Source: a virus
DNA: 13,400 nt
UHGV virus genome: UHGV-0365817
Direction: 5' to 3' (one strand)
Positions 760 to 13,400 of this stretch are shown in pieces. How positions within the stretch are numbered: the stretch's first letter is position 1; each line of letters opens with the position of its first letter. The notes below the pieces were generated by a model. It was not told where the DNA came from. It saw nothing but the letters and a program-made list of their open reading frames with translations, and made no database searches. A program made the position numbers and the translations under genes.

Positions 760-1118
760 TCATTCCCCATTTCGGTGATGGTCAGTTCCAGCCTCCCACC
801 TTTGGTAACAGGCATCTTCACAACGCGGTAATCAACGACCTGAGCATCATCCAGCCAGAAACCTGCTTTAGTGAGTGCGTCAAAAGCGGCTTTTTGCAGA
901 TTATCCAGGTCACGGCGACGGCGATCCGGCATGTGGCACTCAATGCGGATTTTCACAGGCATAGCCAGGCCGATATCTAGCATTGCGTTTTTAATGATTC
1001 GGGCGACGTTATCGCGGTATGCCTGCCCCTCTGCGCTGATGTGCGTGCGTCCGCGATTATGGCGGTAATAGCGATTATTGCTCGGAGGCCAGGGTAATGT
1101 GATGCTGTAGGTATTCAC
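756..1118 (-). CDS. rusA: Crossover junction endodeoxyribonuclease RusA (Holliday junction resolvase)
   Basis: 120-aa ORF whose translation ([24 protein letters not shown]...[13 protein letters not shown]...) I recognise as RusA. The start codon is GTG, preceded by a GAGGGGG Shine-Dalgarno. Confidence 0.9.
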
Positions 1119-1324
1119 GCCTTAATAACCCCCTCTTTCAGCCAGATAACCTGTGTTCTCGCCATACCTTCCAGCGCGCATTCTTTTGCATATGCAGCAT
1201 CGACTTGCTTGGCATGCCCTTTACCGGCAATCTTCTGTATGCGCTAAACCTAGATAGAATCCACTCTGTGCACATTGAAGCCCGCTCTATGCTTCCTTTC
1301 AGGTATTGAAGGGATTGAGATGGG

Positions 1325-1672
1325 CTAAGCATTATTGGCCTCCTGCATCAGGAGAAAGACAATCATGGCGGCGCGGAGAGGTCTGGTATCAAATATTGGG
1401 CTTACGCCTTTTGCATCCACACACCATTCAGTTAACTGGTCTAAGATAGAAACCCTGTATTTCTCAATAATCGGCCATGAAGCGCTCGGATCATTGCAGT
1501 AGTCAGGCAAATGATTTAATGGCTCAAAAGTTGTATCAGCATTTCCGTAATACCATTTGTTGGTGTTATTCCCTGATGTTTCCGGTTTACTTGCCCAAAG
1601 GCCTTTAAAAATTATGTCTCCTACCATTCTGTTAATTTCAAAATCACTTAACTGTGAATAATCCATTGTCAT
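1325..1672 (-). CDS. Conserved nin-region hypothetical protein (about 115 aa)
   Basis: ORF 1325..1708; the internal ATG at 1672 overlaps the ninE stop (ATGA), so 1672 is the likelier start. No family recognised from sequence. Confidence 0.55.
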
Positions 1673-1845
1673 TTCCTCGCACGATATCTTAGCCACCGGA
1701 TATCCCACAGGTGAGCTGTGTAATTGAAGGTTTTTACGTCAGATTCTTTTGGGATTGGCTTGCGTTTATTTCTGGAGCGTTTCGTTGGAAGGTATTTGCA
1801 GTTTTCGCAGATGATGTCGGTGAAACTTCGTCGCTGTCGCCTCAT
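1669..1845 (-). CDS. ninE: NinE-like small protein (58 aa)
   Basis: The internal Met of track ORF 1669..1935 gives [58 protein letters not shown], which resembles lambda NinE as I recall it. Its ATG overlaps the dam stop (ATGA). Confidence 0.65.
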
Positions 1846-2369
1846 GCCGCCCTCCTGACGCCCTGCCCGATCGCCATCAATGCCGCTTTGGATACGGTAG
1901 TAAACATCCGTCGAGGACTGATGAACGGTCGCCAAATCAGCAGCATGGAGCCTTTGCTGTTTCCCTTCTTCTCCAGCCCTGTCGATGGTTCGATAAAATT
2001 AATCCGTCCATCAGTGATAATGCGAACTTCGTCGACACTCTCCAGAGCCTTGCTGAACCATCCGACTGACATATCCTCTGGCACAAGCATAACTACCGTC
2101 TGTCGCTGTTGTATGCACTGCTCAGCAGCTTTTTCCACCCACGGCCTGATATTGCTGTACGGTGGGTTATTCCAGATTGCACCGTGGCTTACCCACTCAG
2201 AATTGAGCGCGTCGTCGGCCTCAGTTAGCCAGTGAGCACACAGAGCATTTTTGTCGCTCGCTGCCGAATCCAGCCAGAATCCAAACTCAATATCCAGTGC
2301 ATCAAAAAGCCAAAGCGGCGTTTGCCAGCAGTCCTTGTCGTGTGCTGGCGTATTTGATTTGATAGTCAT
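1842..2369 (-). CDS. dam: Phage DNA N6-adenine methyltransferase (Dam-like orphan methylase)
   Basis: ORF 1842..2429 contains the NPPY catalytic motif (...[18 protein letters not shown]...) typical of N6-adenine MTases. Start set at the Met of [19 protein letters not shown] (2369), which overlaps the ninB stop (ATGA). Confidence 0.85.
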
Positions 2370-2806
2370 GCAGCCCGATCTCCCCATCTCGCTTTCCACT
2401 CCAGAGCCAGTCTCGCTTCGTCTGACCACTTAACGCCACGCTCTGTACCGAATGCCTGTATAAGCTCTAATAGCTCCGCAAATTCGCCTACACGCATCCT
2501 GCTGGTTGACTGGCCTATTACCACAAAGCCATTCCCGGCAAGGTTAGGAACAACATCCTGCTGCTTTAATGCTGCGGTAAACACACACTTCCAGCTTTCT
2601 GCATCCAGCCAGCGACCATGCCATTCAACCTGACGAGAGACGTCACCTAAGCAGGCCCATAGCTTCCTGTTTTGGTCTAAGCTGCGGTTGCGTTCCTGAA
2701 TGGTTACTACGATTGGTTTGGTTGGGTCTGGAAGGATTTGCTGTACTGCGTGAATAGCGTTTTGCTGATGTGCTGGAGATCGAATTTCAAAGGTTAGTTT
2801 TTTCAT
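2366..2806 (-). CDS. ninB: Recombination protein NinB (Orf family)
   Basis: Translation from MKKLTFEIRSPAHQQNAIHAVQQILPDPTKPIVVTIQERNRSLDQNRKLWACLGDV... matches lambda NinB as remembered. The ATG at 2806 has a GGAGAGGGAAG Shine-Dalgarno. Confidence 0.9.
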   Translation of the reverse strand: MKKLTFEIRSPAHQQNAIHAVQQILPDPTKPIVVTIQERNRSLDQNRKLWACLGDVSRQVEWHGRWLDAESWKCVFTAALKQQDVVPNLAGNGFVVIGQSTSRMRVGEFAELLELIQAFGTERGVKWSDEARLALEWKARWGDRAA

Positions 2807-2822
2807 GACTTCCCTCTCCCCC

Positions 2823-2854
2823 AAATAAAAAGGCCTGCGATTACCAGCAGGCCT
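2823..2854 (-). terminator. Rho-independent terminator between ren and ninB (tR2 position)
   Basis: 7-8 bp inverted repeat (a)ggcctgc / gcaggcc(t) with an 8-nt loop, followed on the minus strand by TTTTATTT. Its position matches lambda tR2 upstream of the nin region. Confidence 0.6.
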
Positions 2855-2879
2855 GTTATTAGCTCAGTAATGTAGATGG

Positions 2880-3170
2880 TCATCTTTTAACTCCATATAC
2901 CGCCAATACCCGTTTCATCGCGGCACTCTGGCGACACTCCTTAAAAACCAGGTTCGTGCTCATCTTTCCTTCCCGTTCTTCCCTGGTAGCAAACCGGTAA
3001 TACACCGTTCGCCAGACCTTACCTTCGATAACCAGAAGACCTGCCCGTGCCATTTTAGCCGCGGCCTGATTTATGCTGGTTACTGTTGCGCCTGTTAGCG
3101 CGGCAACGTCCGGCGCACAGAAGCTATTATGCGTCCTCAGGTAATGAATAATTGCCTCTTTGCCCGTCAT
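2880..3170 (-). CDS. ren: Ren protein
   Basis: 96-aa ORF (MTGKEAIIHYLRTHNSFCAPDVAALTGATVTSINQAAAKMARAGLLVIEGKVWRTVYYRF...) recognised as lambda Ren. Its start overlaps the P stop. Confidence 0.9.
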   Translation of the reverse strand: MTGKEAIIHYLRTHNSFCAPDVAALTGATVTSINQAAAKMARAGLLVIEGKVWRTVYYRFATREEREGKMSTNLVFKECRQSAAMKRVLAVYGVKR

Positions 3171-3868
3171 ACACTTGCTCCTTTCAGTCCGAACTTAGCT
3201 TTGATTTCTGCGATCTTCGCCAGAGCCTGTGCACGATTTAGAGGTCTACCGCCCATGACAGGAAGTTGTTTTACTGGTTCAGGGATCGCCTCACCACGGT
3301 TAATTCTCGCAGTCATATGGACAAGCTCATCTGCGGCCTTACGGCGTAATTCCGCATCAGTAAGCGCATTGGCCCGCATGTTCTGATACAGGTTGGTAAT
3401 CAGCCAGTAGTGCGCGTTTGATTTCCACGGATAAGACTCCGCATCCGGATACAGGCCTCGCTTCCGGCAATACTCGTAAACCATATCAACCAGCTCGCTG
3501 ACGTTTGGCAGTCCGGCGGTAACGGATGCTTCTTCCCGGCACCATGCAACAAACTGCCCGGGTGATGGCAGAAATGGTCGATTCTGCCGACGGGCTACGC
3601 GCATTCCTGCGTTAACCTGTTCCATCGTGGTGATCCCGTTTTCCCGAAAAGCCAGAACCCACTGGCGACGGATTTCGTTCACTTCGTTCTGGTCACGGTT
3701 AGCCAGGCTCGCAGGGAAAGTTGCCAGTAACTGGCTGAACACACCGTTGATGATCTGCGCTACCTGCTGTACCTGCGGCTTTTCGTCGTACTGTTCCGGC
3801 ATGTTGTTGGCGATCCGACGCATCTGCTCACGGTCAAAGTTAACCATCTGTGCGGCGATGTTTTTCAT
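3167..3868 (-). CDS. P: Replication protein P (DnaB helicase loader)
   Basis: 233-aa ORF with translation recognised as lambda P (MKNIAAQMVNFDREQMRRIANNMPEQYDEKPQVQQVAQIINGVFSQLLATFPASLANRDQ...). Its start overlaps the O stop (ATGA). Confidence 0.95.
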   Translation of the reverse strand: MKNIAAQMVNFDREQMRRIANNMPEQYDEKPQVQQVAQIINGVFSQLLATFPASLANRDQNEVNEIRRQWVLAFRENGITTMEQVNAGMRVARRQNRPFLPSPGQFVAWCREEASVTAGLPNVSELVDMVYEYCRKRGLYPDAESYPWKSNAHYWLITNLYQNMRANALTDAELRRKAADELVHMTARINRGEAIPEPVKQLPVMGGRPLNRAQALAKIAEIKAKFGLKGASV

Positions 3869-4764
3869 AGATCCACCCCGTAAATCCAGTCTGTGTTTGT
3901 CAGGTCGAGTTTTGGTTTGCTGGCTGTCACGCCTGCCTGTTGCTTGTTACGGTTGATTTCGAGTTGGGTCCACTTATCGCGGAGTTTGGCCGGGCTCAGC
4001 ACGTTACCGGACCAGAAGTTGTCCTGGCATGCCCAGCGGAACAGCACGCACATGTCGCGGTGGTTACGTCCGTCACGTTCACGCATCAGGCGGATATCGT
4101 TAGCCCACCCAGCAAAATTCGGTTTTCTGGCTGATGGTGCGATAGTCTTCACCATGTCAAACATCCACTCTGCGGCGGTCAGGTCTTCTGCTGTCCCCCA
4201 CTTGCTGCCGCTCTGAATTGCAGCATCCGGTTTCACCACAGAAAGGTCGTTTTCTGGCTGGTCAGAGGATTCGCCAGAATTCTCTGACGAATAATCTTTT
4301 CTTTTTTCTTTTGTAATAGTGTCTTTTGTGTCCCCCTGTTTTGAGGGATAGCAATCCCCCAATTTGAGGGATGTTTTATCCCTCGTTTTAGGGGATTTTC
4401 CCTCGTTTTGAGGGATGCACCATTCTGAGATGTTTTTATTTGGTCCAAACATGCCGCCTTGCTGCTTGATAATATTCATTCTGACGAGTTCTAACTTGGC
4501 TTCATTGCACCGTTTGACGGGTAACTTTGTAATCTCGCTAAGTTGAGAATCGGTGATTCTGTCCATTGGTTTATTCCACCCATAGGTTTTACGCAGAATG
4601 GCAAGCAGCACTTTAAACTGTCGCTTGGTCAGATCTGCGCCCGAATAAGCCTCAAGCAGCATATTTGATAGTCTGGCGTAACCATCATCGAGATCTGCCA
4701 CATTACGCTCCTGTCCGGCAAAGTTACCTCTGCCGAAGTTGAGTATTTTTGCTGTATTTGTCAT
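3865..4764 (-). CDS. O: Replication initiator protein O
   Basis: 299-aa ORF with translation recognised as lambda O (MTNTAKILNFGRGNFAGQERNVADLDDGYARLSNMLLEAYSGADLTKRQFKVLLAILRKTYGW...). The ori iterons are embedded in the coding sequence. Confidence 0.95.
   Translation of the reverse strand: MTNTAKILNFGRGNFAGQERNVADLDDGYARLSNMLLEAYSGADLTKRQFKVLLAILRKTYGWNKPMDRITDSQLSEITKLPVKRCNEAKLELVRMNIIKQQGGMFGPNKNISEWCIPQNEGKSPKTRDKTSLKLGDCYPSKQGDTKDTITKEKRKDYSSENSGESSDQPENDLSVVKPDAAIQSGSKWGTAEDLTAAEWMFDMVKTIAPSARKPNFAGWANDIRLMRERDGRNHRDMCVLFRWACQDNFWSGNVLSPAKLRDKWTQLEINRNKQQAGVTASKPKLDLTNTDWIYGVDL
4290..4416. other. Origin of replication (ori-lambda type): four iterons plus adjacent AT-rich region
   Basis: Four about 19-bp dyad-symmetric iterons of the form tccc(c/t)c...ttttgagggat at 4331..4350, 4354..4372, 4378..4396 and 4399..4416, next to an AT-rich stretch (about 4290..4325). 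This is the arrangement known for ori-lambda inside O. Confidence 0.85.
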
Positions 4765-4767
4765 AAT
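4739..4767 (+). promoter_or_regulatory. pO promoter for oop RNA
   Basis: TTGAGT (-35, 4739..4744), 17-bp spacer, CATAAT (-10, 4762..4767), 7 bp upstream of the oop 5' end. Antisense to the O start and cII 3' end. Confidence 0.55.
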
Positions 4768-4774
4768 GACTCCT

Positions 4775-4851
4775 GTTGATAGATCCAGTAATGACCTCAG
4801 AACTCCATCTGGATTTGTTCAGAACGCTCGATTGCCGCCGGGCGTTTTTTA
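4775..4851 (+). ncRNA. oop: oop antisense RNA with its terminator (lambda t0/to)
   Basis: Sequence gttgatagatccagtaatgacctcagaactccatctggatttgttcagaacgctcgattgccgccgggcgttttttatt is nearly identical to the lambda oop/t0 sequence I know. It ends in a GC-rich stem plus T6 and is antisense to the 3' end of cII. Confidence 0.65.
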
Positions 4852-5090
4852 TTGGTGAGAATCGCAGCAACTTGTCGCGCCAATCGAGCCATGTCGTCGT
4901 CAACGACCCCCCATTCAAGAACAGCAAGCAGCATTGAGAACTTGGGAATCCAGTCTCTCTTCCACCTGCTGATCTGCGACTTATCAACTCCCACAGCTTC
5001 CGCTGTCTTCTCAGTTCCAAGCATTGCGATTTTGTTAAGCAACGCACTCTCGATTCGTAGTGCCTCGTTGCGTTTGTTTGCACGAACCAT
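4797..5090 (-). CDS. cII: Transcriptional activator CII
   Basis: Translation from the ATG at 5090 (MVRANKRNEALRIESALLNKIAMLGTEKTAEAVGVDKSQISRWKRDWIPKFSMLLAVLEWGV...) matches lambda CII. The track ORF carries a 20-codon upstream extension that is not part of CII. Confidence 0.95.
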   Translation of the reverse strand: MVRANKRNEALRIESALLNKIAMLGTEKTAEAVGVDKSQISRWKRDWIPKFSMLLAVLEWGVVDDDMARLARQVAAILTNKKRPAAIERSEQIQMEF

Positions 5091-5100
5091 ATGTAAGTAT
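5068..5100 (+). promoter_or_regulatory. pRE promoter region with CII-binding TTGC-N6-TTGC repeat
   Basis: TTGCGTTTGTTTGC at 5068..5081 on the plus strand (antisense to the cII 5' end), with AAGTAT-like -10 downstream. This matches the known CII-activated pRE architecture. Confidence 0.6.
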
Positions 5101-5169
5101 TTCCTTAGATAACAATTGATTGAATGTATGCAAATAAATGCATACACCATAGGTGTGGCTTAATTGGAT

Positions 5170-5201
5170 GCCCTTTTTCAGGGCTGTGATGTGTAAGAGC
5201 G
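5170..5201 (-). promoter_or_regulatory. nutR (boxA + boxB) N-utilisation site
   Basis: On the minus strand, boxA CGCTCTTA (5201..5194) is followed by boxB hairpin GCCCTGAAAAAGGGC (5184..5170), immediately downstream of the cro stop. Confidence 0.8.
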
Positions 5202-5208
5202 GTGTTAT

Positions 5209-5418
<210 letters not shown>

Positions 5419-5433
5419 TTAGTACATGCAATT

Positions 5434-5503
5434 ATTATCACCGCTAGAGGTAAAACAGTCAACACGCACGGTGTTAGATATTTATCCCTTGCGGTGATAG
5501 ATT
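5434..5503. promoter_or_regulatory. Right operator OR1-OR2-OR3 with divergent promoters pR (towards cro) and pRM (towards cI)
   Basis: Three 17-bp operator sites: OR1 5436..5452, OR2 5460..5476, OR3 5483..5499. pR on the minus strand has -35 TTGACT (5462..5457) and -10 GATAAT (5439..5434). pRM on the plus strand has -35 TAGATA (5475..5480) and -10 TAGATT (5498..5503), with the cI ATG at 5510 (leaderless). Confidence 0.9.
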
Positions 5504-5506
5504 TAA

Positions 5507-6223
<717 letters not shown>

Positions 6224-6341
6224 CCACAATACAACCTTGTTGTCGCAAAAAGATCGCATATGCGATTGTTTATTAGAAATAGAAATCGCCATATAGGCGA
6301 ATAGTCGATCTCAGCGCATAACATAAGGAAATCAATAACAT

Positions 6342-7247
6342 ATGCCAAATTTACCGATGGGCGGATCGCAGGGTGAATTACCCTTAGTACCTACAGTAGA
6401 AGTTGTTGCTGATGGCATTCCTATGGGGGTGCTTAATGATGGAACCCCTTATCTAACTCTTTACGGTTTAGCCAAATTATGTGGCATAGATGAAGCACCT
6501 CTTCGAATGTTTACATCTAACTGGGAGACTGAAAAAAATAAGCCAAGAGGACAAAAAGTAGCTGCATACTTAGCTGAGAAAGGATTTAACAACGTTGACC
6601 GACTGTATACCCGCGTCATAAATAGCTCAAACGTTGAAACACATGCTTATCCTGACTATGTTTGTATGGCTATCCTCCGTTACTACGCTCTAGATGCCAC
6701 CAATTTTGATAGGTCAGTCGCAATAGGTAATTTTGTTCGCTTGGCTGAGTACACGCTTAAGCGAATGATTTATGAAAAGTCAAATTACAACCCAAATGCT
6801 TCAATAGATATCTCATTCGAGAACTATAGAGCAAGGATTAAGCTAAACGATCAGATACCGACAACTCATTTTGCAGTATTCAGAGAGATAGCTGACATTG
6901 CCATGAACCTGATCGGAGGAGGATTCCCAATGGATGACACCACATCTTTGGATGGAAGTGTTGGAATTCACTGGGGAAAGTATTGGACAGCTAATGGGCT
7001 ATCTGAGAAATTCGGGGAAAGGGTGCAGTACCCACATCTATTCCCCGAAAATTACAGGCAGTCAGCTGCAAATAAGCATATAACAGCTTGGATTTATCCT
7101 ATTGAGGCACTTGGCGTGTTCAGAAAATGGCTACACGATAATTACGCAATGGAAAAACTGCCAAATTACCTTGGGAACAAAAAGATTAGTAATGCCTCCG
7201 AGCTATTAGAGTCGATAAAAAAACCAGCACTCCCAAATAAGCATTGA
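6342..7247 (+). CDS. Hypothetical 301-aa protein in the rexAB slot; candidate phage-exclusion / abortive-infection protein with a possible KilA-N/Bro-N-like N-terminus
   Basis: Long ORF with an ATG at 6342 preceded by AAGGAA. It is not RexA or RexB by sequence. It looks more AT-rich by eye than the flanking cI and N genes. The N-terminal segment (...DGTPYLTLYGLAKLCGIDEAPL...) resembles the conserved core of KilA-N/Bro-N DNA-binding domains. It is followed by its own terminator. Confidence 0.8.
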   Translation: MPNLPMGGSQGELPLVPTVEVVADGIPMGVLNDGTPYLTLYGLAKLCGIDEAPLRMFTSNWETEKNKPRGQKVAAYLAEKGFNNVDRLYTRVINSSNVETHAYPDYVCMAILRYYALDATNFDRSVAIGNFVRLAEYTLKRMIYEKSNYNPNASIDISFENYRARIKLNDQIPTTHFAVFREIADIAMNLIGGGFPMDDTTSLDGSVGIHWGKYWTANGLSEKFGERVQYPHLFPENYRQSAANKHITAWIYPIEALGVFRKWLHDNYAMEKLPNYLGNKKISNASELLESIKKPALPNKH

Positions 7248-7258
7248 TCTCCACCACA

Positions 7259-7285
7259 ACCCGGCATCTGCGCCGGGTTTTCTTT
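7259..7285 (+). terminator. Rho-independent terminator after the immunity-region cargo gene
   Basis: Inverted repeat acccggc / gccgggt (7259..7265 and 7272..7278) with loop atctgc, followed by TTTTCTTT, 12 bp after the stop of ORF 6342..7247. Confidence 0.65.
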
Positions 7286-7425
7286 GCCTAACGCCCCCAA
7301 AAAACACATAACCAATTGTATTTATTTTAAAATTAATAGATACAACTCGCTAAACATCGCAATTCAGATCTCTCGATCACCTTCCCAATCCACACAACCC
7401 TGCAAAAAATAAATCTATATAAAAA

Positions 7426-7495
7426 ACATACAGATAACCATCTGCGGTGATAAATTATCTCTGGCGGTGTTGACACAGATACCACTGGCGGTGAT
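7426..7495 (+). promoter_or_regulatory. Left operator OL3-OL2-OL1 and pL promoter
   Basis: OL3 aaccatctgcggtgata (7426..7442), OL2 tatctctggcggtgttg (7446..7462), OL1 taccactggcggtgata (7470..7486). pL has -35 TTGACA (7460..7465) and -10 GATACT (7483..7488), with a start site near 7495. Confidence 0.9.
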
Positions 7496-7538
7496 ACTAA
7501 GCGCATCAGCAGGACGCACTAACCACCATTGAAGGTGA

Positions 7539-7569
7539 GGCTCTTAAAAATTTAGCCCTGAAGAAGGGC
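7539..7569 (+). promoter_or_regulatory. nutL (boxA + boxB)
   Basis: boxA-like GGCTCTTAA (7539..7547) followed by boxB hairpin GCCCTGAAGAAGGGC (7555..7569), between pL and N. Confidence 0.75.
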
Positions 7570-7679
7570 AGCATTCAAAGCAGAAAGCTTTGAGTAGCGC
7601 GAAATGCAGCTGCAAGACAGCAACCGTGGGGATAAGCATCACGGCGCGTTACTCAAAGCTAACTGACAGGAGAATCCAG

Positions 7680-8003
7680 ATGGATGCACAAACACGCCGC
7701 CGCGAACGTCGCACAGAGAAACAGGCTCAATGGAAAGCAGCAAATCCCCTGTTGGTTGGGGTAAGCGCAAAACCAGTTAACCGCCCTATTCTCTCGCTGA
7801 ATCGCAAACCGAAATCACGAGTAGAAAGCGCACTGAATCCGATAGACCTTACGGTGCTGGCTGAATACCACGAACAGATTGAAAGCAACCTGCAACGTAT
7901 TGAGCGCAAGAATCAGCGCACATGGTACAGCAAGCCTGGCGAACGCGGCATAACATGCAGAGGACGCCAGAAAATTAAGGGAAAATCGATTCCTCTTACC
8001 TAG
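7680..8003 (+). CDS. N: Antitermination protein N
   Basis: Translation from MDAQTRRRERRTEKQAQWKAANPLLVGVSAKPVNRPILSLNRKPKSRVESALNPIDL... matches lambda N, including the arginine-rich boxB-binding motif. The ATG at 7680 has an AGGAGA Shine-Dalgarno; the track ORF extends in-frame upstream to 7590. Confidence 0.9.
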   Translation: MDAQTRRRERRTEKQAQWKAANPLLVGVSAKPVNRPILSLNRKPKSRVESALNPIDLTVLAEYHEQIESNLQRIERKNQRTWYSKPGERGITCRGRQKIKGKSIPLT

Positions 8004-8555
8004 TTACTTAGATATTGGCCTTGGCTTTATCTCAATATTATATGGATCATAGCTGGCAACTAATTCAGTCCAGTAAATATCCTCAATAGGGAATAATATA
8101 TGCTTCCCGTTCCATCGGGAAAAAGTTTTGTTCAACACACCAAGCTCAATCAACTCACTAATGTATGGGAATTGTTTTGATGTAACCACATACTTCCTGC
8201 CTTCATTAAGGGCTGCGCACAAAACCATAGATTGCTCTTCTGTAAGGTTTTGAATTACCGATCGCACTTTATCGTTTTGCATCTTAATGCGTTTTCTTAG
8301 CTTAAATCGCTTATATCTGGCGCTGGCAATAGCTGATAATCGATGCACATTAATTGCTAGCGAAAATGCAAGAGCAAAGACGAAAACATGCCACACATGA
8401 GGAATACCGATTCTCTCATTAACATATTCAGGCCAGTTATCTGGGCTTAAAAGCAGAAGTCCAACCCAGATAACGATCATATACATGGTTCTCTCCAGAG
8501 GTTCATTACTGAACACTCGTCCGAGAATAACGAGTGGATCCATTTCTATACTCAT
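8004..8555 (-). CDS. sieB: Superinfection exclusion protein B (SieB-like membrane protein)
   Basis: ORF convergent with N and abutting its stop, the position and size I recall for lambda sieB. Hydrophobic N-terminal segments (IVIWVGLLLLSP, VFVFALAFSLAINV) fit a membrane protein. The track start at 8558 is TTG; an ATG follows at 8555. Confidence 0.7.
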   Translation of the reverse strand: MSIEMDPLVILGRVFSNEPLERTMYMIVIWVGLLLLSPDNWPEYVNERIGIPHVWHVFVFALAFSLAINVHRLSAIASARYKRFKLRKRIKMQNDKVRSVIQNLTEEQSMVLCAALNEGRKYVVTSKQFPYISELIELGVLNKTFSRWNGKHILFPIEDIYWTELVASYDPYNIEIKPRPISK

Positions 8556-8682
8556 CAAACTGTAGGGGTTGTAATAGTTTATCCGATTTCTCGCTGTAGG
8601 GGTACACGAGAACCACCGAGCCTGATGTGGTTAAAAGACAGGCACAATCTTTACTACCGCAATCCACTATTTAAGGTGATAT

Positions 8683-8769
8683 ATGGAAGAAGAATTTGAA
8701 GAGTTCGAAGAGCATCCGCAGGATGTAATGGAACAGTACCAGGACTATCCGTATGACTACGACTATTGA
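8683..8769 (+). CDS. Small acidic ORF (28 aa), orf28-like
   Basis: ATG at 8683 preceded by AAGGTGAT; translation MEEEFEEFEEHPQDVMEQYQDYPYDYDY. It overlaps the ral start and sits where lambda has a small ORF upstream of ral. Confidence 0.45.
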   Translation: MEEEFEEFEEHPQDVMEQYQDYPYDYDY

Positions 8770-8953
8770 TAAGAATCAATGGTGTGGACAATTCAAGCGA
8801 TGCAATGGATGCAAGCTGCAATCGGAATGCATGGTTAAGCCTGAAGAAATGTTTCCTGTAATGGAAGATGGGAAATATGTCGATAAATGGGCAATACGAA
8901 CGACGGCAATGATTGCCAGAGAACTTGGTAAACAGAACAACAAAGCTGCCTGA
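8753..8953 (+). CDS. ral: Restriction alleviation protein Ral
   Basis: 66-aa ORF (MTTTIDKNQWCGQFKRCNGCKLQSECMVKPEEMFPVMEDGKYVDKWAIRTTAMIARELGKQNNKAA) recognised as lambda Ral. Confidence 0.9.
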   Translation: MTTTIDKNQWCGQFKRCNGCKLQSECMVKPEEMFPVMEDGKYVDKWAIRTTAMIARELGKQNNKAA

Positions 8954-9089
8954 TAGTGGCCTTTATTTTTGGCATAAATAACAGAATAAACACTGCACTG
9001 TGTATTCATTCCAACGAGTGAATACACGGAGCAATGTCGCTCGTAACTAAACAGGAGCCGACTTGTTCTGATTATTGGAAATCTTCTTT

Positions 9090-9116
9090 GCCCTCCAGTG
9101 TGAGGGCGATTTTTTA
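9090..9116 (+). terminator. Rho-independent terminator-like hairpin between ral and ea10
   Basis: gccctc / gagggc 6-bp stem (9090..9095 and 9102..9107) with a 6-nt loop, followed by GATTTTTTAT. It lies in the pL operon, where the N-suppressed tL2-type terminators are expected. Confidence 0.5.
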
Positions 9117-9135
9117 TCTATGAGGATATGAATAG

Positions 9136-9504
9136 ATGTCAAACATCAAAAAATACATCATTGATTACGACTGGAAAGCATCAATAGAAATTGAAATCGA
9201 TCATGACGTAATGACAGAGGAAAAACTTCACCAGATTAATAATTTCTGGTCAGACTCTGAATACCGACTCAATAAACACGGCTCTGTATTAAATGCTGTA
9301 TTAATCATGCTGGCGCAACATGCTCTGCTTATAGCAATTTCAAGCGACTTAAATGCATATGGTGTTGTGTGTGAGTTCGACTGGAATGATGGAAATGGTC
9401 AGGAAGGATGGCCTCCAATGGATGGTAGCGAAGGAATAAGAATTACCGATATCGATACATCAGGAATATTTGATCCAGATGATATGACTATCAAAGCCGC
9501 CTGA
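9136..9504 (+). CDS. ea10: Ea10 protein (early-left ORF)
   Basis: 122-aa ORF (MSNIKKYIIDYDWKASIEIEIDHDVMTEEKLHQINNFWSDSEYRLNKHGSVLNAVLIMLAQ...) recognised as lambda Ea10. Confidence 0.85.
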   Translation: MSNIKKYIIDYDWKASIEIEIDHDVMTEEKLHQINNFWSDSEYRLNKHGSVLNAVLIMLAQHALLIAISSDLNAYGVVCEFDWNDGNGQEGWPPMDGSEGIRITDIDTSGIFDPDDMTIKAA

Positions 9505-9576
9505 GCGCGGCGTTACCGCATACCAATAACGCTTCACTCGAGGCGTTTTTCGTTATGTATAAATAAGGAGCACACC

Positions 9577-9741
9577 ATGCAATATGCCATTGCAGGGTGG
9601 CCTGTTGCTGGCTGCCCTTCCGAATCTTTACTTGAACGAATCACCCGTAAATTACGTGACGGATGGAAACGCCTTATCGACATACTTAATCAGCCAGGAG
9701 TCCCAAAAAATGGATCAAACACTTATGGCTATCCAGACTAA
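9577..9741 (+). CDS. cIII: CIII protein (FtsH inhibitor that stabilises CII)
   Basis: 54-codon ORF absent from the track (under 60 aa): ATG at 9577 preceded by AAGGAG; translation [54 protein letters not shown] matches lambda CIII. Confidence 0.85.
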   Translation: MQYAIAGWPVAGCPSESLLERITRKLRDGWKRLIDILNQPGVPKNGSNTYGYPD

Positions 9742-9874
9742 ATTCACTATCGCCACTTTTATTGGCGATGAAAAGATGTTTCGTGAGGCCGTCGACGCTT
9801 ATAAAAAATGGATATTAATACTGAAACTGAGATCAAGCAAAAGCATTCACTACCCCCCTTCCCTGTTTTCCTAA
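9710..9874 (+). CDS. kil: Kil protein (host cell-division inhibitor)
   Basis: [47 protein letters not shown]... begins inside the end of cIII and overlaps the gam start, as in lambda. Here the frame runs 7 codons longer than the lambda Kil I recall. Confidence 0.7.
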
Positions 9875-10224
9875 TCAGCCCGGCATTTCGCGGACGATAT
9901 TTTCACAGCTATTTCAGGAGTTCAGCCATGAACGCTTATTACATTCAGGATCGTCTTGAGGCTCAGAGCTGGGCGCGTCACTACCAGCAGATCGCCCGTG
10001 AAGAGAAAGAGGCAGAACTGGCAGACGACATGGAAAAAGGCCTGCCCCAGCACCTGTTTGAATCGCTATGCATCGATCATTTGCAACGCCACGGGGCCAG
10101 CAAAAAAGCCATTACCCGTGCGTTTGATGACGATGTTGAGTTTCAGGAGCGCATGGCAGAACACATCCGGTACATGGTTGAAACCATTGCTCACCACCAG
10201 GTTGATATTGATTCAGAGGTATAA
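9808..10224 (+). CDS. gam: Gam protein (RecBCD inhibitor)
   Basis: 138-aa ORF ([61 protein letters not shown]...) recognised as lambda Gam. Confidence 0.9.
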
Positions 10225-10229
10225 AACGG

Positions 10230-11015
10230 ATGAGTACAGCACTCGCAACGCTGGCTGGGAAGCTGGCTGAACGTGTCGGCATGGATTCTGTCGACCCACA
10301 GGAACTGATCACCACTCTTCGCCAGACGGCATTTAAAGGTGATGCCAGCGATGCGCAGTTCATCGCATTGCTGATCGTCGCCAACCAGTACGGCCTTAAT
10401 CCGTGGACGAAAGAAATTTACGCCTTCCCTGATAAGCAGAACGGCATTGTTCCGGTGGTGGGCGTTGATGGCTGGTCCCGCATCATCAATGAAAACCAGC
10501 AGTTTGATGGCATGGACTTTGAGCAGGACAATGAATCCTGTACATGCCGGATTTACCGCAAGGACCGTAATCATCCGATCTGCGTTACCGAATGGATGGA
10601 TGAATGCCGCCGCGAACCATTCAAAACCCGCGAAGGCAGAGAAATCACGGGGCCGTGGCAGTCGCATCCCAAACGGATGTTACGGCATAAAGCCATGATT
10701 CAGTGTGCCCGTCTGGCCTTCGGATTTGCTGGTATCTATGACAAGGATGAAGCCGAGCGCATTGTCGAAAATACTGCATACACTGCAGAACGTCAGCCGG
10801 AACGCGACATCACTCCGGTTAACGATGAAACCATGCAGGAGATTAACACTCTGCTGATCGCCCTGGATAAAACATGGGATGACGACTTATTGCCGCTCTG
10901 TTCCCAGATATTTCGCCGCGACATTCGCGCATCGTCAGAACTGACACAGGCCGAAGCAGTGAAAGCTCTTGGATTCCTTAAACAGAAAGCCACTGAGCAG
11001 AAGGTGGCAGCATGA
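10230..11015 (+). CDS. bet: Bet (Red-beta single-strand annealing protein)
   Basis: 261-aa ORF ([66 protein letters not shown]...) recognised as lambda Bet. Confidence 0.95.
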
Positions 11016-11692
11016 TACCGGACATTATCCTGCAGCGTACCGGGATCGACGTGAGAGCTGTCGAACAGGGGGATGATGCATGGCACAAATTACGGCTCGG
11101 CGTCATCACCGCTTCAGAAGTTCACAACGTGATAGCAAAGCCCCGCTCAGGAAAGAAGTGGCCTGACATGAAAATGTCCTACTTCCACACCCTGCTTGCC
11201 GAGGTTTGCACCGGTGTGGCTCCGGAAGTTAACGCTAAGGCGCTGGCCTGGGGAAAACAGTACGAGAACGACGCCAGAGCCCTCTTTGAGTTCACTTCCG
11301 GCGTGAATGTTACTGAATCCCCGATCATCTATCGCGACGAAAGTATGCGCACCGCCTGCTCTCCCGATGGTTTATGCAGTGACGGCAACGGCCTTGAACT
11401 GAAATGCCCGTTTACCTCCCGGGATTTCATGAAGTTCCGGCTCGGTGGTTTCGAGGCCATAAAGTCGGCTTACATGGCCCAGGTGCAGTACAGCATGTGG
11501 GTGACGCGAAAAGATGCCTGGTACTTTGCCAACTATGACCCACGAATGAAGCGTGAAGGCCTGCATTATGTCGTGGTTGAGCGGGATGAAAATTACATGG
11601 CGAGTTTTGACGAGATGGTGCCGGAGTTCATCGAAAAAATGGACGAGGCACTGGCTGAAATTGGTTTTGTATTTGGGGAGCAATGGCGATGA
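11012..11692 (+). CDS. exo: Exo (lambda exonuclease, Red-alpha)
   Basis: 226-aa ORF ([65 protein letters not shown]...) recognised as lambda Exo. Its start overlaps the bet stop. Confidence 0.95.
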
Positions 11693-11871
11693 AGCATCCT
11701 CGCGATAATATCCGGGTAGGCGCGATCACTTTCGTCTACTCCGTTACAAAGCGAGGCTGGGTATTTCCCGGCCTTTCTGTTACCCGAAATCCCCTGAAAG
11801 CACAGCGGCTGGCTGAGGAGATAAATAATAAACGGGGAGCTGTATGCACAAAGCATCTCCTGTTGAGTTAA
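11689..11871 (+). CDS. Small early-left protein, orf60a-like
   Basis: [60 protein letters not shown]; position and sequence match lambda orf60a as recalled. The track ORF begins two codons upstream, overlapping the exo stop. Confidence 0.7.
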
Positions 11872-12035
11872 GAACGAGCATTGAGATGGCACATAGCCTC
11901 GCTCAAATTGGAGTCAGGTTTGTGCCAATACCAGTAGAAACAGACGAAGAATTTCACACGTTAGCCGCATCCCTTTCACAAAAGCTGGAAATGATGGTGG
12001 CGAAAGCAGAAGCAGATGAGAGAGACCAGGTATGA
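11844..12035 (+). CDS. Small early-left protein, orf63-like
   Basis: 63-aa ORF ([63 protein letters not shown]) in the position of lambda orf63. Confidence 0.7.
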   Translation: MHKASPVELRTSIEMAHSLAQIGVRFVPIPVETDEEFHTLAASLSQKLEMMVAKAEADERDQV

Positions 12036-12115
12036 CAACCACTGAATGCATTTTTCTGGCAGCGGGCTTCATATTCTGTGTGCTTATGCTTGCCGACATG
12101 GGACTTGTTCAATGA
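12032..12115 (+). CDS. Candidate 27-aa hydrophobic micro-protein, translationally coupled on both sides
   Basis: ATG at 12032 overlaps the orf63 stop (ATGA) and its TGA overlaps the next ATG at 12112 (ATGA). Translation MTTTECIFLAAGFIFCVLMLADMGLVQ is consistent with a single transmembrane helix. Confidence 0.35.
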   Translation: MTTTECIFLAAGFIFCVLMLADMGLVQ

Positions 12116-12327
12116 CACCTCAGCAGGAAAACGCCCTTCGCAGCATTGCCCGTCAGGCTAATTCTGAAATCAAAAAAGCCAGACAGCAGTTTCCGGATAA
12201 AAACGTCGATGACATTTGCCGTAGCGTACTGAAGAAGCACCGCGAAACGGTAACGCTGATGGGATTCACACCGACTCATTTAAGCCTGGCAATCGGCATG
12301 TTAAACGGCGTCTTTAAGGAACGATGA
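12112..12327 (+). CDS. Small early-left protein (71 aa), orf61-like
   Basis: Internal Met of track ORF 12046..12327: MTPQQENALRSIARQANSEIKKARQQFPDKNVDDICRSVLKKHRETVTLMGFTPTHLSLAIGMLNGVFKER. No domain recognised. Confidence 0.6.
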   Translation: MTPQQENALRSIARQANSEIKKARQQFPDKNVDDICRSVLKKHRETVTLMGFTPTHLSLAIGMLNGVFKER

Positions 12328-12425
12328 ACATGAAAAGCAAAATCATCAGGGAGCTACAGGCTCCTTTTTTATTATTCGCATTCACCCTCAAGCGTATTAA
12401 CCAACAATTCAGGGATTAATGGAAG

Positions 12426-12647
12426 ATGGCAGACATCATTGATTCAGCATCAGAAATTGAAGAATTACAGCGCAACACAGCAATAAAAATGCGTCGTCTG
12501 AACTACCAGACTGTATCTGCCACTCATTGTTGTGAGTGTGGCGATCCGATAGATGAACGAAGACGCCTGGTCGTTCAGGGTTGTCGGACTTGTGCAAGTT
12601 GCCAGGAGGATCTGGAGCTTATCAGTAAACAGAGAGGTTCGAAGTGA
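12426..12647 (+). CDS. TraR/DksA-family C4 zinc-finger protein (lambda Orf73-like)
   Basis: 73-aa ORF with a CxxC...CxxC motif (HCCECGDPIDERRRLVVQGCRTCASCQ) and an acidic N-terminus, characteristic of phage TraR-like RNA-polymerase-binding proteins. Confidence 0.85.
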   Translation: MADIIDSASEIEELQRNTAIKMRRLNYQTVSATHCCECGDPIDERRRLVVQGCRTCASCQEDLELISKQRGSK

Positions 12648-12895
12648 GCGTAATTCACTCTCAGGCACTGCGTGAAGCGGCAGAGCAGGCAATGCCTGAC
12701 AACTGGGGATTTGACGCGGACCTTTTCCATGAGCTGGTAACACCATCGATTGTGCTGACACTGCTGGATGAACGGGAAAGAAACCAGCAATACATCAAAC
12801 GCCGCGACCAGGAGAACGAGGATATTGCGCTAACGGTGGGGAAACTGCGTGTTGAGCTGGAGACAGCAAAAATCAAAACTCAACGAGCAGCGTGA
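12644..12895 (+). CDS. ea22: Ea22-like protein, N-terminal portion, ending at an in-frame TGA
   Basis: GTG start at 12644 overlapping the TraR-like stop, with an AGAGAGG Shine-Dalgarno. Translation MSVIHSQALREAAEQAMPDNWGFDADLFHELVTPSIVLTLLDERERNQQYIKRRDQENEDIALTVGKLRVELETAKIKTQRAA resembles the lambda Ea22 N-terminus. The same frame stays open for 53 more codons after the TGA. Confidence 0.6.
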   Translation: MSVIHSQALREAAEQAMPDNWGFDADLFHELVTPSIVLTLLDERERNQQYIKRRDQENEDIALTVGKLRVELETAKIKTQRAA

Positions 12896-13183
12896 GTAGA
12901 AGGTGTTATCTCGGATGGAAGTAAGCGTATTGCTGAACTGGAGGCCTGGGTTGAATACACAAGAGCTGCATACGTAAGAGCAAAAGACAAGGGAGATTTG
13001 ATCAGAGTTATTACCCGCCAACCAACGGGATTTTACGCTTACGTACCATGTAATTAGGAATCCTTGAAGTGGCAGCCTAACTGCGGATACACTGAAATGG
13101 CGATTTGGTAACATGTTTCGCACAAGGCTGTTACTACACTTAGAGATAATCAGCCATGATTAAACGCTTTGTAAAAAGTAAAA

Positions 13184-13255
13184 GGAAATTACAATGAAAA
13201 AATCAATACTAATTTTAGGGCTTACGTTAATTGTCTCATCTCAAATACCATCGGC
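13184..13255 (+). pseudogene. Signal-peptide-like ORF truncated by IS1 insertion
   Basis: ATG at 13184 with an AAGGAAA Shine-Dalgarno; translation MKKSILILGLTLIVSSQIPSAMG has a signal-peptide-like N-terminus. The last codons and the stop are supplied by the IS1 terminal repeat, which begins at 13251. Confidence 0.4.
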
Positions 13256-13400
13256 AATGGGGTAATGACTCCAACTTATTGATAGTGTTTTATGTTCAGA
13301 TAATGCCCGATGACTTTGTCATGCAGCTCCACCGATTTTGAGAACGACAGCGACTTCCGTCCCAGCCGTGCCAGGTGCTGCCTCAGATTCAGGTTATGCC
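13251..13400 (-). mobile_element. IS1: IS1 insertion sequence, partial: right terminal inverted repeat and 3' end of insB, continuing beyond the window
   Basis: GGTAATGACTCCAACTTATTGATAGTG at 13251 onward is the IS1 terminal inverted repeat as I know it. The minus-strand reading frame ending at 13276 encodes the InsB C-terminus (...[40 protein letters not shown]). Confidence 0.9.
13276..13400 (-). CDS. insB: IS1 transposase InsB, C-terminal fragment (partial at window edge)
   Basis: Minus-strand frame open from the window edge to the stop at 13276..13278; its translation matches the InsB C-terminus. Confidence 0.85.

Follow-up and report, generated by a model that had tools for sequence, protein, structure and literature searches.

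An IS1 end interrupts an exported-protein gene in the early-left region of a lambda-like prophage

The junction at the edge of the window

We analysed a 13,400-nucleotide (nt) stretch of viral DNA from the genome UHGV-0365817 (the window), at whose right edge one end of the insertion sequence (IS) IS1 lies within an accessory gene of a lambda-like prophage. In uninterrupted relatives this gene encodes an exported protein of 204 amino acid residues, and the window retains its beginning as a short open reading frame (ORF). The features around the junction are given below.

13183-13186, plus strand: Shine-Dalgarno sequence AGGA, read directly, 7 nt 5' of the disrupted gene's ATG
13194-13265, plus strand: truncated ORF of 23 codons and a stop, from the ORF list and from alignment to the intact gene (L002:6795-7409; L025:12183-12797)
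13252-13260, no strand: predicted IS1 target CGGCAATGG, 9 base pairs (bp), by analogy with three clean 9-bp duplications at the locus
13261-13400, minus strand (transposase): right end of IS1, the first 140 of about 768 bp, assigned by identity to IS1A and ending at the window edge
13261-13283, no strand: 23-bp terminal inverted repeat of IS1, GGTAATGACTCCAACTTATTGAT, read from the sequence itself and supplying the TAA at 13263-13265
13276-13398, minus strand: 3' end of insB by translation, comprising the last 40 codons (13279-13398) and the stop (13276-13278)

The residual ORF opens at ATG 13194, encodes MKKSILILGLTLIVSSQIPSAMG and closes at TAA 13263-13265. Its codons 1-22 correspond to the signal peptide of the 204-residue protein, codon 23 (GGG) is a hybrid whose first base comes from the gene and whose other two come from IS1, and the stop codon is formed by nucleotides 3-5 of IS1. 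The element is placed after nucleotide 67 of the gene (window 13260), following codon 22, with its transposase in the orientation opposite to that of the disrupted gene. In the protein, the split falls after the M of A-M-A, one residue ahead of the predicted signal-peptidase site AMA|K. Since the mature protein is absent from the residual ORF, the allele is null for it, and the remnant is predicted to be essentially a bare signal peptide. The original prediction, made from the letters of the window alone, had described an ORF with a good Shine-Dalgarno sequence, a signal-peptide-like N-terminus and a stop codon taken from the IS1 repeat, and each of these elements is present. Its coordinates need correction by 10 nt in two places: the ORF does not start at 13184, which falls within the AGGA, and IS1, which does run to the window edge, begins at 13261 and not at 13251.

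The good Shine-Dalgarno sequence and ATG would also suit a genuine small gene of 23 codons rather than a remnant, but codons 1-22 are identical to the start of a 204-residue gene conserved from Escherichia coli to Pseudomonas and Aeromonas, and the last codon and the stop are IS1 sequence. We consider this explanation effectively refuted. The Shine-Dalgarno stretch is the same in the aligned uninterrupted relatives. The ORF should be annotated as the remnant of a disrupted gene and not as a small secreted peptide.

IS1 encodes InsA and InsB, which are fused through a -1 frameshift into the DDE_Tnp_IS1 transposase. In the window, the minus-strand translation of 13279-13398 matches the InsB C-terminus exactly and is followed by the stop, in agreement with the earlier proposal of an insB 3' end on that strand. 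The whole of 13261-13400 is identical (140 of 140 nt) to an annotated IS1A copy in E. coli PSS-16, and is also 100% identical to IS1 in the phage P1 fragment AF125376.2 and in other records. The visible end carries an IS1-family terminal inverted repeat, and the same terminus abuts the flank in PSS-16, where the full-length copy matches Pfam DDE_Tnp_IS1 (PF03400, E=2.3e-78). The IS1 match is not due to chance. We take the 23-bp terminus to be IRR, the insB end of IS1. Of the 9,407 E. coli records matched by a 301-nt query across the junction (window 13100-13400), nearly all aligned through the IS1 half.

Assemblies fail at repeats, and IS1 is present at a median of 10 matching places per genome. 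A contig wrongly joined or ended within this multi-copy repeat, with a gene free of IS1 in the real genome, would also account for a junction that is peculiar to the window among all the collections searched. An artefact of this kind is very improbable because the sequence breaks precisely where the inverted repeat begins, which is what transposition requires. So exact a terminus-to-target junction would not arise from a mis-join within the repeat, and the site is AT-rich, with several independent IS insertions in other strains.

The interrupted gene and its uninterrupted relatives

Three prophages (L025, L028 and L031), retrieved by look-up with the window's exo protein, served as empty-site references. 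Across window positions 1012-13260 they show 2, 2 and 4 mismatches in 12,249 nt (99.97-99.98% identity). They lack IS1, and each carries an intact ORF for the 204-residue protein, the first 22 codons of which are those of the window ORF. The original prediction had read the junction as an insertional truncation of a secreted or membrane protein gene and had staked this on the existence of a longer homologue in an uninterrupted prophage; the 204-residue homologue in these near-identical prophages bears it out, and the alignment with them stops exactly at 13260. A flank search of 5,426 complete E. coli genomes also recovered uninterrupted relatives with an ORF reaching 204 codons, an example being WP_000748282.1 of strain AMSHJX01 (L002:6795-7409). 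Relative to the uninterrupted prophages, a single substitution is specific to the window; it falls at 6220, in the third position of the final codon of cI, and the cI protein of the window is matched exactly in other loci. With only 2-4 substitutions in 12.2 kb separating it from uninterrupted prophages, the IS1 insertion is probably recent and evolutionarily young.

The intact product begins with MKK, followed by SILILGLTLIVSS, a hydrophobic core of 13 residues, and QIPSA-M-A|K. Judged by inspection, these segments form a Sec signal peptide of the signal peptidase I type, with a basic n-region, a hydrophobic core and an AXA motif of small residues at -3 and -1. The protein matches PHROG 8310 (function unknown) at E=1.8e-136. 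Its mature part matched no Pfam family above threshold, the closest being SH3_3 (PF08239) at 16.2 bits against a cut-off of 27 (E=0.012), and some homologues carry a precomputed PF08239 match. For the intact protein, an SH3b fold was found, together with this Pfam sequence score below the cut-off. Neither a PADLOC match nor a sequence relative in the PDB was found for the intact protein.

Homologues with 34-69% identity occur in Pseudomonas, Aeromonas and metagenomes. They have signal peptides or lipoboxes, the lipobox in some of them replacing the AXA site, and their genes lie beside genomic-island integrases or inside a prophage. An AlphaFold model built with 39 sequences is confident, with a predicted local distance difference test (pLDDT) score of 90.3; residues 1-23 are disordered and of low pLDDT, and the fold starts at residue 27. 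The C-terminal region of about 80 residues is conserved (SDDY...C...GGW...YFTYCGG...N-R-IYL), and fold searches of the PDB with this domain gave no match. The lost protein is an uncharacterised exported accessory protein of mobile elements, combining an SH3b-like domain with a conserved C-terminal domain. It belongs to a widespread family of uncharacterised exported SH3b-domain proteins on prophages and integrative islands. Frameshifted and partial versions are present in other strains, which suggests that the 204-residue gene is often lost.

Other insertions at the locus and the mode of insertion

The flanking locus is carried by 132 of the 5,426 complete E. coli genomes, and in 11 of these 132 carriers the region covered by a 361-nt probe spanning the start of the gene is interrupted or only partly present. 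The insertion breakpoints were mapped onto L025.

ATCC 8739 lineage: IS1, about 68 nt upstream of the ATG
EP91B: IS1, between the Shine-Dalgarno sequence and the ATG
F829: IS1, in codons 5-8, 45 nt upstream of the window's site
This window: IS1, after codon 22
PSS-16: IS1, in codons 39-42, 58 nt further into the gene than the window's site
81EVA: IS5-family element, duplicated target TCGGCAATG of 9 bp, offset by 1 nt from the window's predicted target

The IS1 positions range from about 68 nt before the ATG to +125, and all five copies are in one orientation. Target duplications of 9 bp were found in PSS-16 (TACCTGCCC), F829 (TACTAATTT) and EP91B (GGAAATTAC). Given the different positions and isoforms, the insertions at the locus are all independent events. 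A single insertion shared by PSS-16 and the window, followed by an adjacent 58-bp deletion, was rejected as the default; PSS-16 has its own clean 9-bp duplication. Separately, a "partial" protein of 167 residues, represented by 76 member sequences, starts at residue 38, and contig-edge fragments from an insertion of the PSS-16 type would look like this.

Because three other IS1 insertions at the locus show clean 9-bp duplications and intact downstream genes, we infer a simple insertion in the window as well. An IS1A-type element would have transposed into an accessory gene of the early-left (pL) operon in a lambda-like prophage, entering the gene at its AT-rich 5' end, and we put the probability of this reading at about 0.8. 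Transposition would have duplicated the 9 bp CGGCAATGG and placed the remainder of the gene beyond the other end of the element. The sequence beyond the window should then hold 628 further nt of IS1 ending in ...AAGTTGGCAGCATCACC, followed by CGGCAATGG, CAAAAAATGAATCAAAACTATGG... and the remaining 548 nt of the gene, so that the far end of IS1 is expected to continue as CGGCAATGG-CAAAAAATGAATC...

Several observations weigh against a simple insertion. The window shows 140 nt of IS1, and the other end of the element, the duplication and the remainder of the gene lie beyond it. Searches of 5,426 complete E. coli genomes, GTDB species representatives, JGI metagenomes, IMG/VR, INPHARED phages and PLSDB plasmids did not recover the junction. 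In ATCC 8739, IS1 lacks a clean duplication, and about 12 nt of the flank are missing or different. IS1-associated deletions do occur, as in PSS-16, whose related prophage has two IS1 copies and lacks the segment from ninE to the TraR-like gene beside the second of them, which abuts that gene.

Further searches for the junction gave the same outcome. The exact 47-nt junction was not found in genome, metagenome and viral contig collections, and in BLAST searches with the junction against complete E. coli genomes, phages and plasmids each half matched on its own, never both together. Nor did the genome contigs contain the predicted far junction (…CATCACC-CGGCAATGG-CAAAAAATG). Look-up of a 36-residue ORF spanning the junction yielded no record, and the relatives recovered with the TraR-like, BstA-like and exo proteins were all either uninterrupted or interrupted in another way.

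Alternatively, the IS1 may mark the endpoint of a rearrangement, in which the remainder of the gene, perhaps together with xis and int, was lost or inverted by an adjacent deletion or by recombination with another IS1 copy. The prophage would then be locked in place; the original prediction had suggested that it may be cryptic or rearranged. The hidden far side of the element and the PSS-16 and ATCC 8739 cases would fit such an event, as would the abundance of other elements (IS3, IS5, IS66 and IS21) in related prophages. We nevertheless regard it as unlikely: perfect 9-bp duplications flank three of the four other IS1 insertions at the locus, gene order downstream is kept through xis in all four, and the 2-4 substitutions relative to intact prophages suggest a young event. 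In these four relatives xis is still contiguous downstream, and int follows it intact in three, being split by IS3 in PSS-16.

In PSS-16 (L001, 5288-7627), the TraR-like gene, the Ea22 fragment and the 5' portion of the 204-residue gene lie between the two IS1A copies. The PSS-16 prophage is an example of IS-driven decay in the same prophage type.

The insertion site is a local minimum of GC content, at 30-31%. IS1 prefers AT-rich targets of 8-9 bp (PMC10359306), and as the site is such a minimum, this preference may have driven its choice. More broadly, an AT-rich stretch of about 200 bp (window about 13126-13318; L025:12115-12307; GC 30-31%) has received six independent IS insertions among the roughly 130 carriers examined, five of IS1 and one of an IS5-family element. 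These recurrent insertions resemble an AT-rich IS hot spot. Selection might have contributed in addition to target preference, either by silencing a costly exported SH3b-domain protein or by uncoupling xis and int from pL in the course of prophage domestication. We consider a role for selection doubtful, and the locus data gave no evidence of selection against the 204-residue gene. The repeated IS hits on one short AT-rich stretch across E. coli lineages are of minor specialist interest.

Prophage setting, consequences and comparison with known systems

The plus-strand genes of the window run in the order cI (5510-6223), a 301-residue BstA-like gene, N, ral, DUF2528, cIII, kil, gam, bet and exo. 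After exo come DUF1317, DUF1382, an ORF of 71/93 residues, a TraR/DksA-like gene, an Ea22-like fragment (12644-12895) and the disrupted gene; sieB lies on the strand opposite to the pL genes. Assignments were taken from annotations and Pfam matches in regions 98-99.98% identical to the window. One RNA element was also found within this region.

9564-9622, plus strand: lambda cIII thermoregulator RNA (Rfam RF01804, Lambda_thermo), 88.5 bits

The Rfam match confirms a lambda-type pL operon, and the gene order on one strand downstream of cI agrees with it. In intact relatives, the 204-residue gene is followed by a 112-residue ORF, DUF2513, a 55-residue ORF, xis, int and then the chromosomal gene ybhC. 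The pL context of the original prediction therefore stands, but its placement of the insertion at the distal end of the operon needs qualifying, as about 2.2 kb more precede ybhC in these relatives. The disrupted gene is in the ea region, distal in the pL transcript and not last. With ybhC beside int, the near-identical relatives are placed at the lambda attachment site; the window itself ends before that side.

In lambda, N is the only pL gene that plaque formation requires (PMC10695390), so that loss of the 204-residue gene should not disable the phage. The phage life cycle is probably little affected, and a simple IS1 insertion at this site would not make the phage cryptic. Transcription from pL towards xis and int would have to cross 768 bp of untranslated antisense IS1, and excision may drop unless N antitermination reads through. 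In classical work on IS insertions in gal, N-modified polymerase is said to override their polarity, and excision may for this reason be reduced rather than abolished. Annotation of the prophage should record that IS1 separates the recombination genes from the presumed xis/int module.

Other features of the region were also observed. The 301-residue gene at 6342-7247 (plus strand), directly 3' of cI in the slot held by rexAB in lambda, encodes a BstA abortive-infection defence protein; its product matches PADLOC BstA at E=3.6e-106 and the record has a precomputed PF26567 BstA_C match, and a local Pfam scan of it gave no match. The Ea22-like ORF at 12644-12895 (plus strand) is cut to 83 codons and is annotated as frameshifted and incomplete in relatives. 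It is followed by about 300 nt (12896-13193) without an annotated gene. The interval 12644-13193 looks like a mosaic joint, with the module of the 204-residue gene in place of the usual ea22/ea8.5 genes of other relatives. Around the intact gene, scans for promoters and terminators gave no more hits than shuffled sequence did, and so provide no evidence that the gene is a self-contained transcription unit.

In the window, a well-known element has knocked out a dispensable prophage gene by insertion, an ordinary event of a kind already known. The element's terminal 140 nt, including the inverted repeat and the insB 3' end, are identical to those of IS1 (IS1A type) of E. coli K-12 and phage P1. 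The visible part shows no differences from that element; what sets the window apart is its insertion site, which is absent from the collections searched. The AT-rich targeting described for IS1 (PMC10359306) is common to the window insertion. Compared with PHROG 8310 and WP_000748282.1, a hypothetical exported SH3b-domain protein, the window ORF corresponds to residues 1-22, and the mature protein is lost entirely. The IS1 copies of PSS-16, F829, EP91B and ATCC 8739 share with that of the window their locus, their orientation and the kind of effect, a knock-out or polar insertion, whereas F829, EP91B and ATCC 8739 carry another IS1 isoform (with a GGTAGTGAC... terminus) and the window carries IS1A.

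A further parallel is the AT-rich regulatory region of the bgl operon, which has been hit repeatedly by IS1 and by an IS5-family element, with insertions that activate the silent operon. As at the prophage locus, a short AT-rich stretch there has received both kinds of element. The bgl insertions differ in activating a silent operon, whereas those at the prophage locus interrupt or precede a coding sequence, with no activation indicated.
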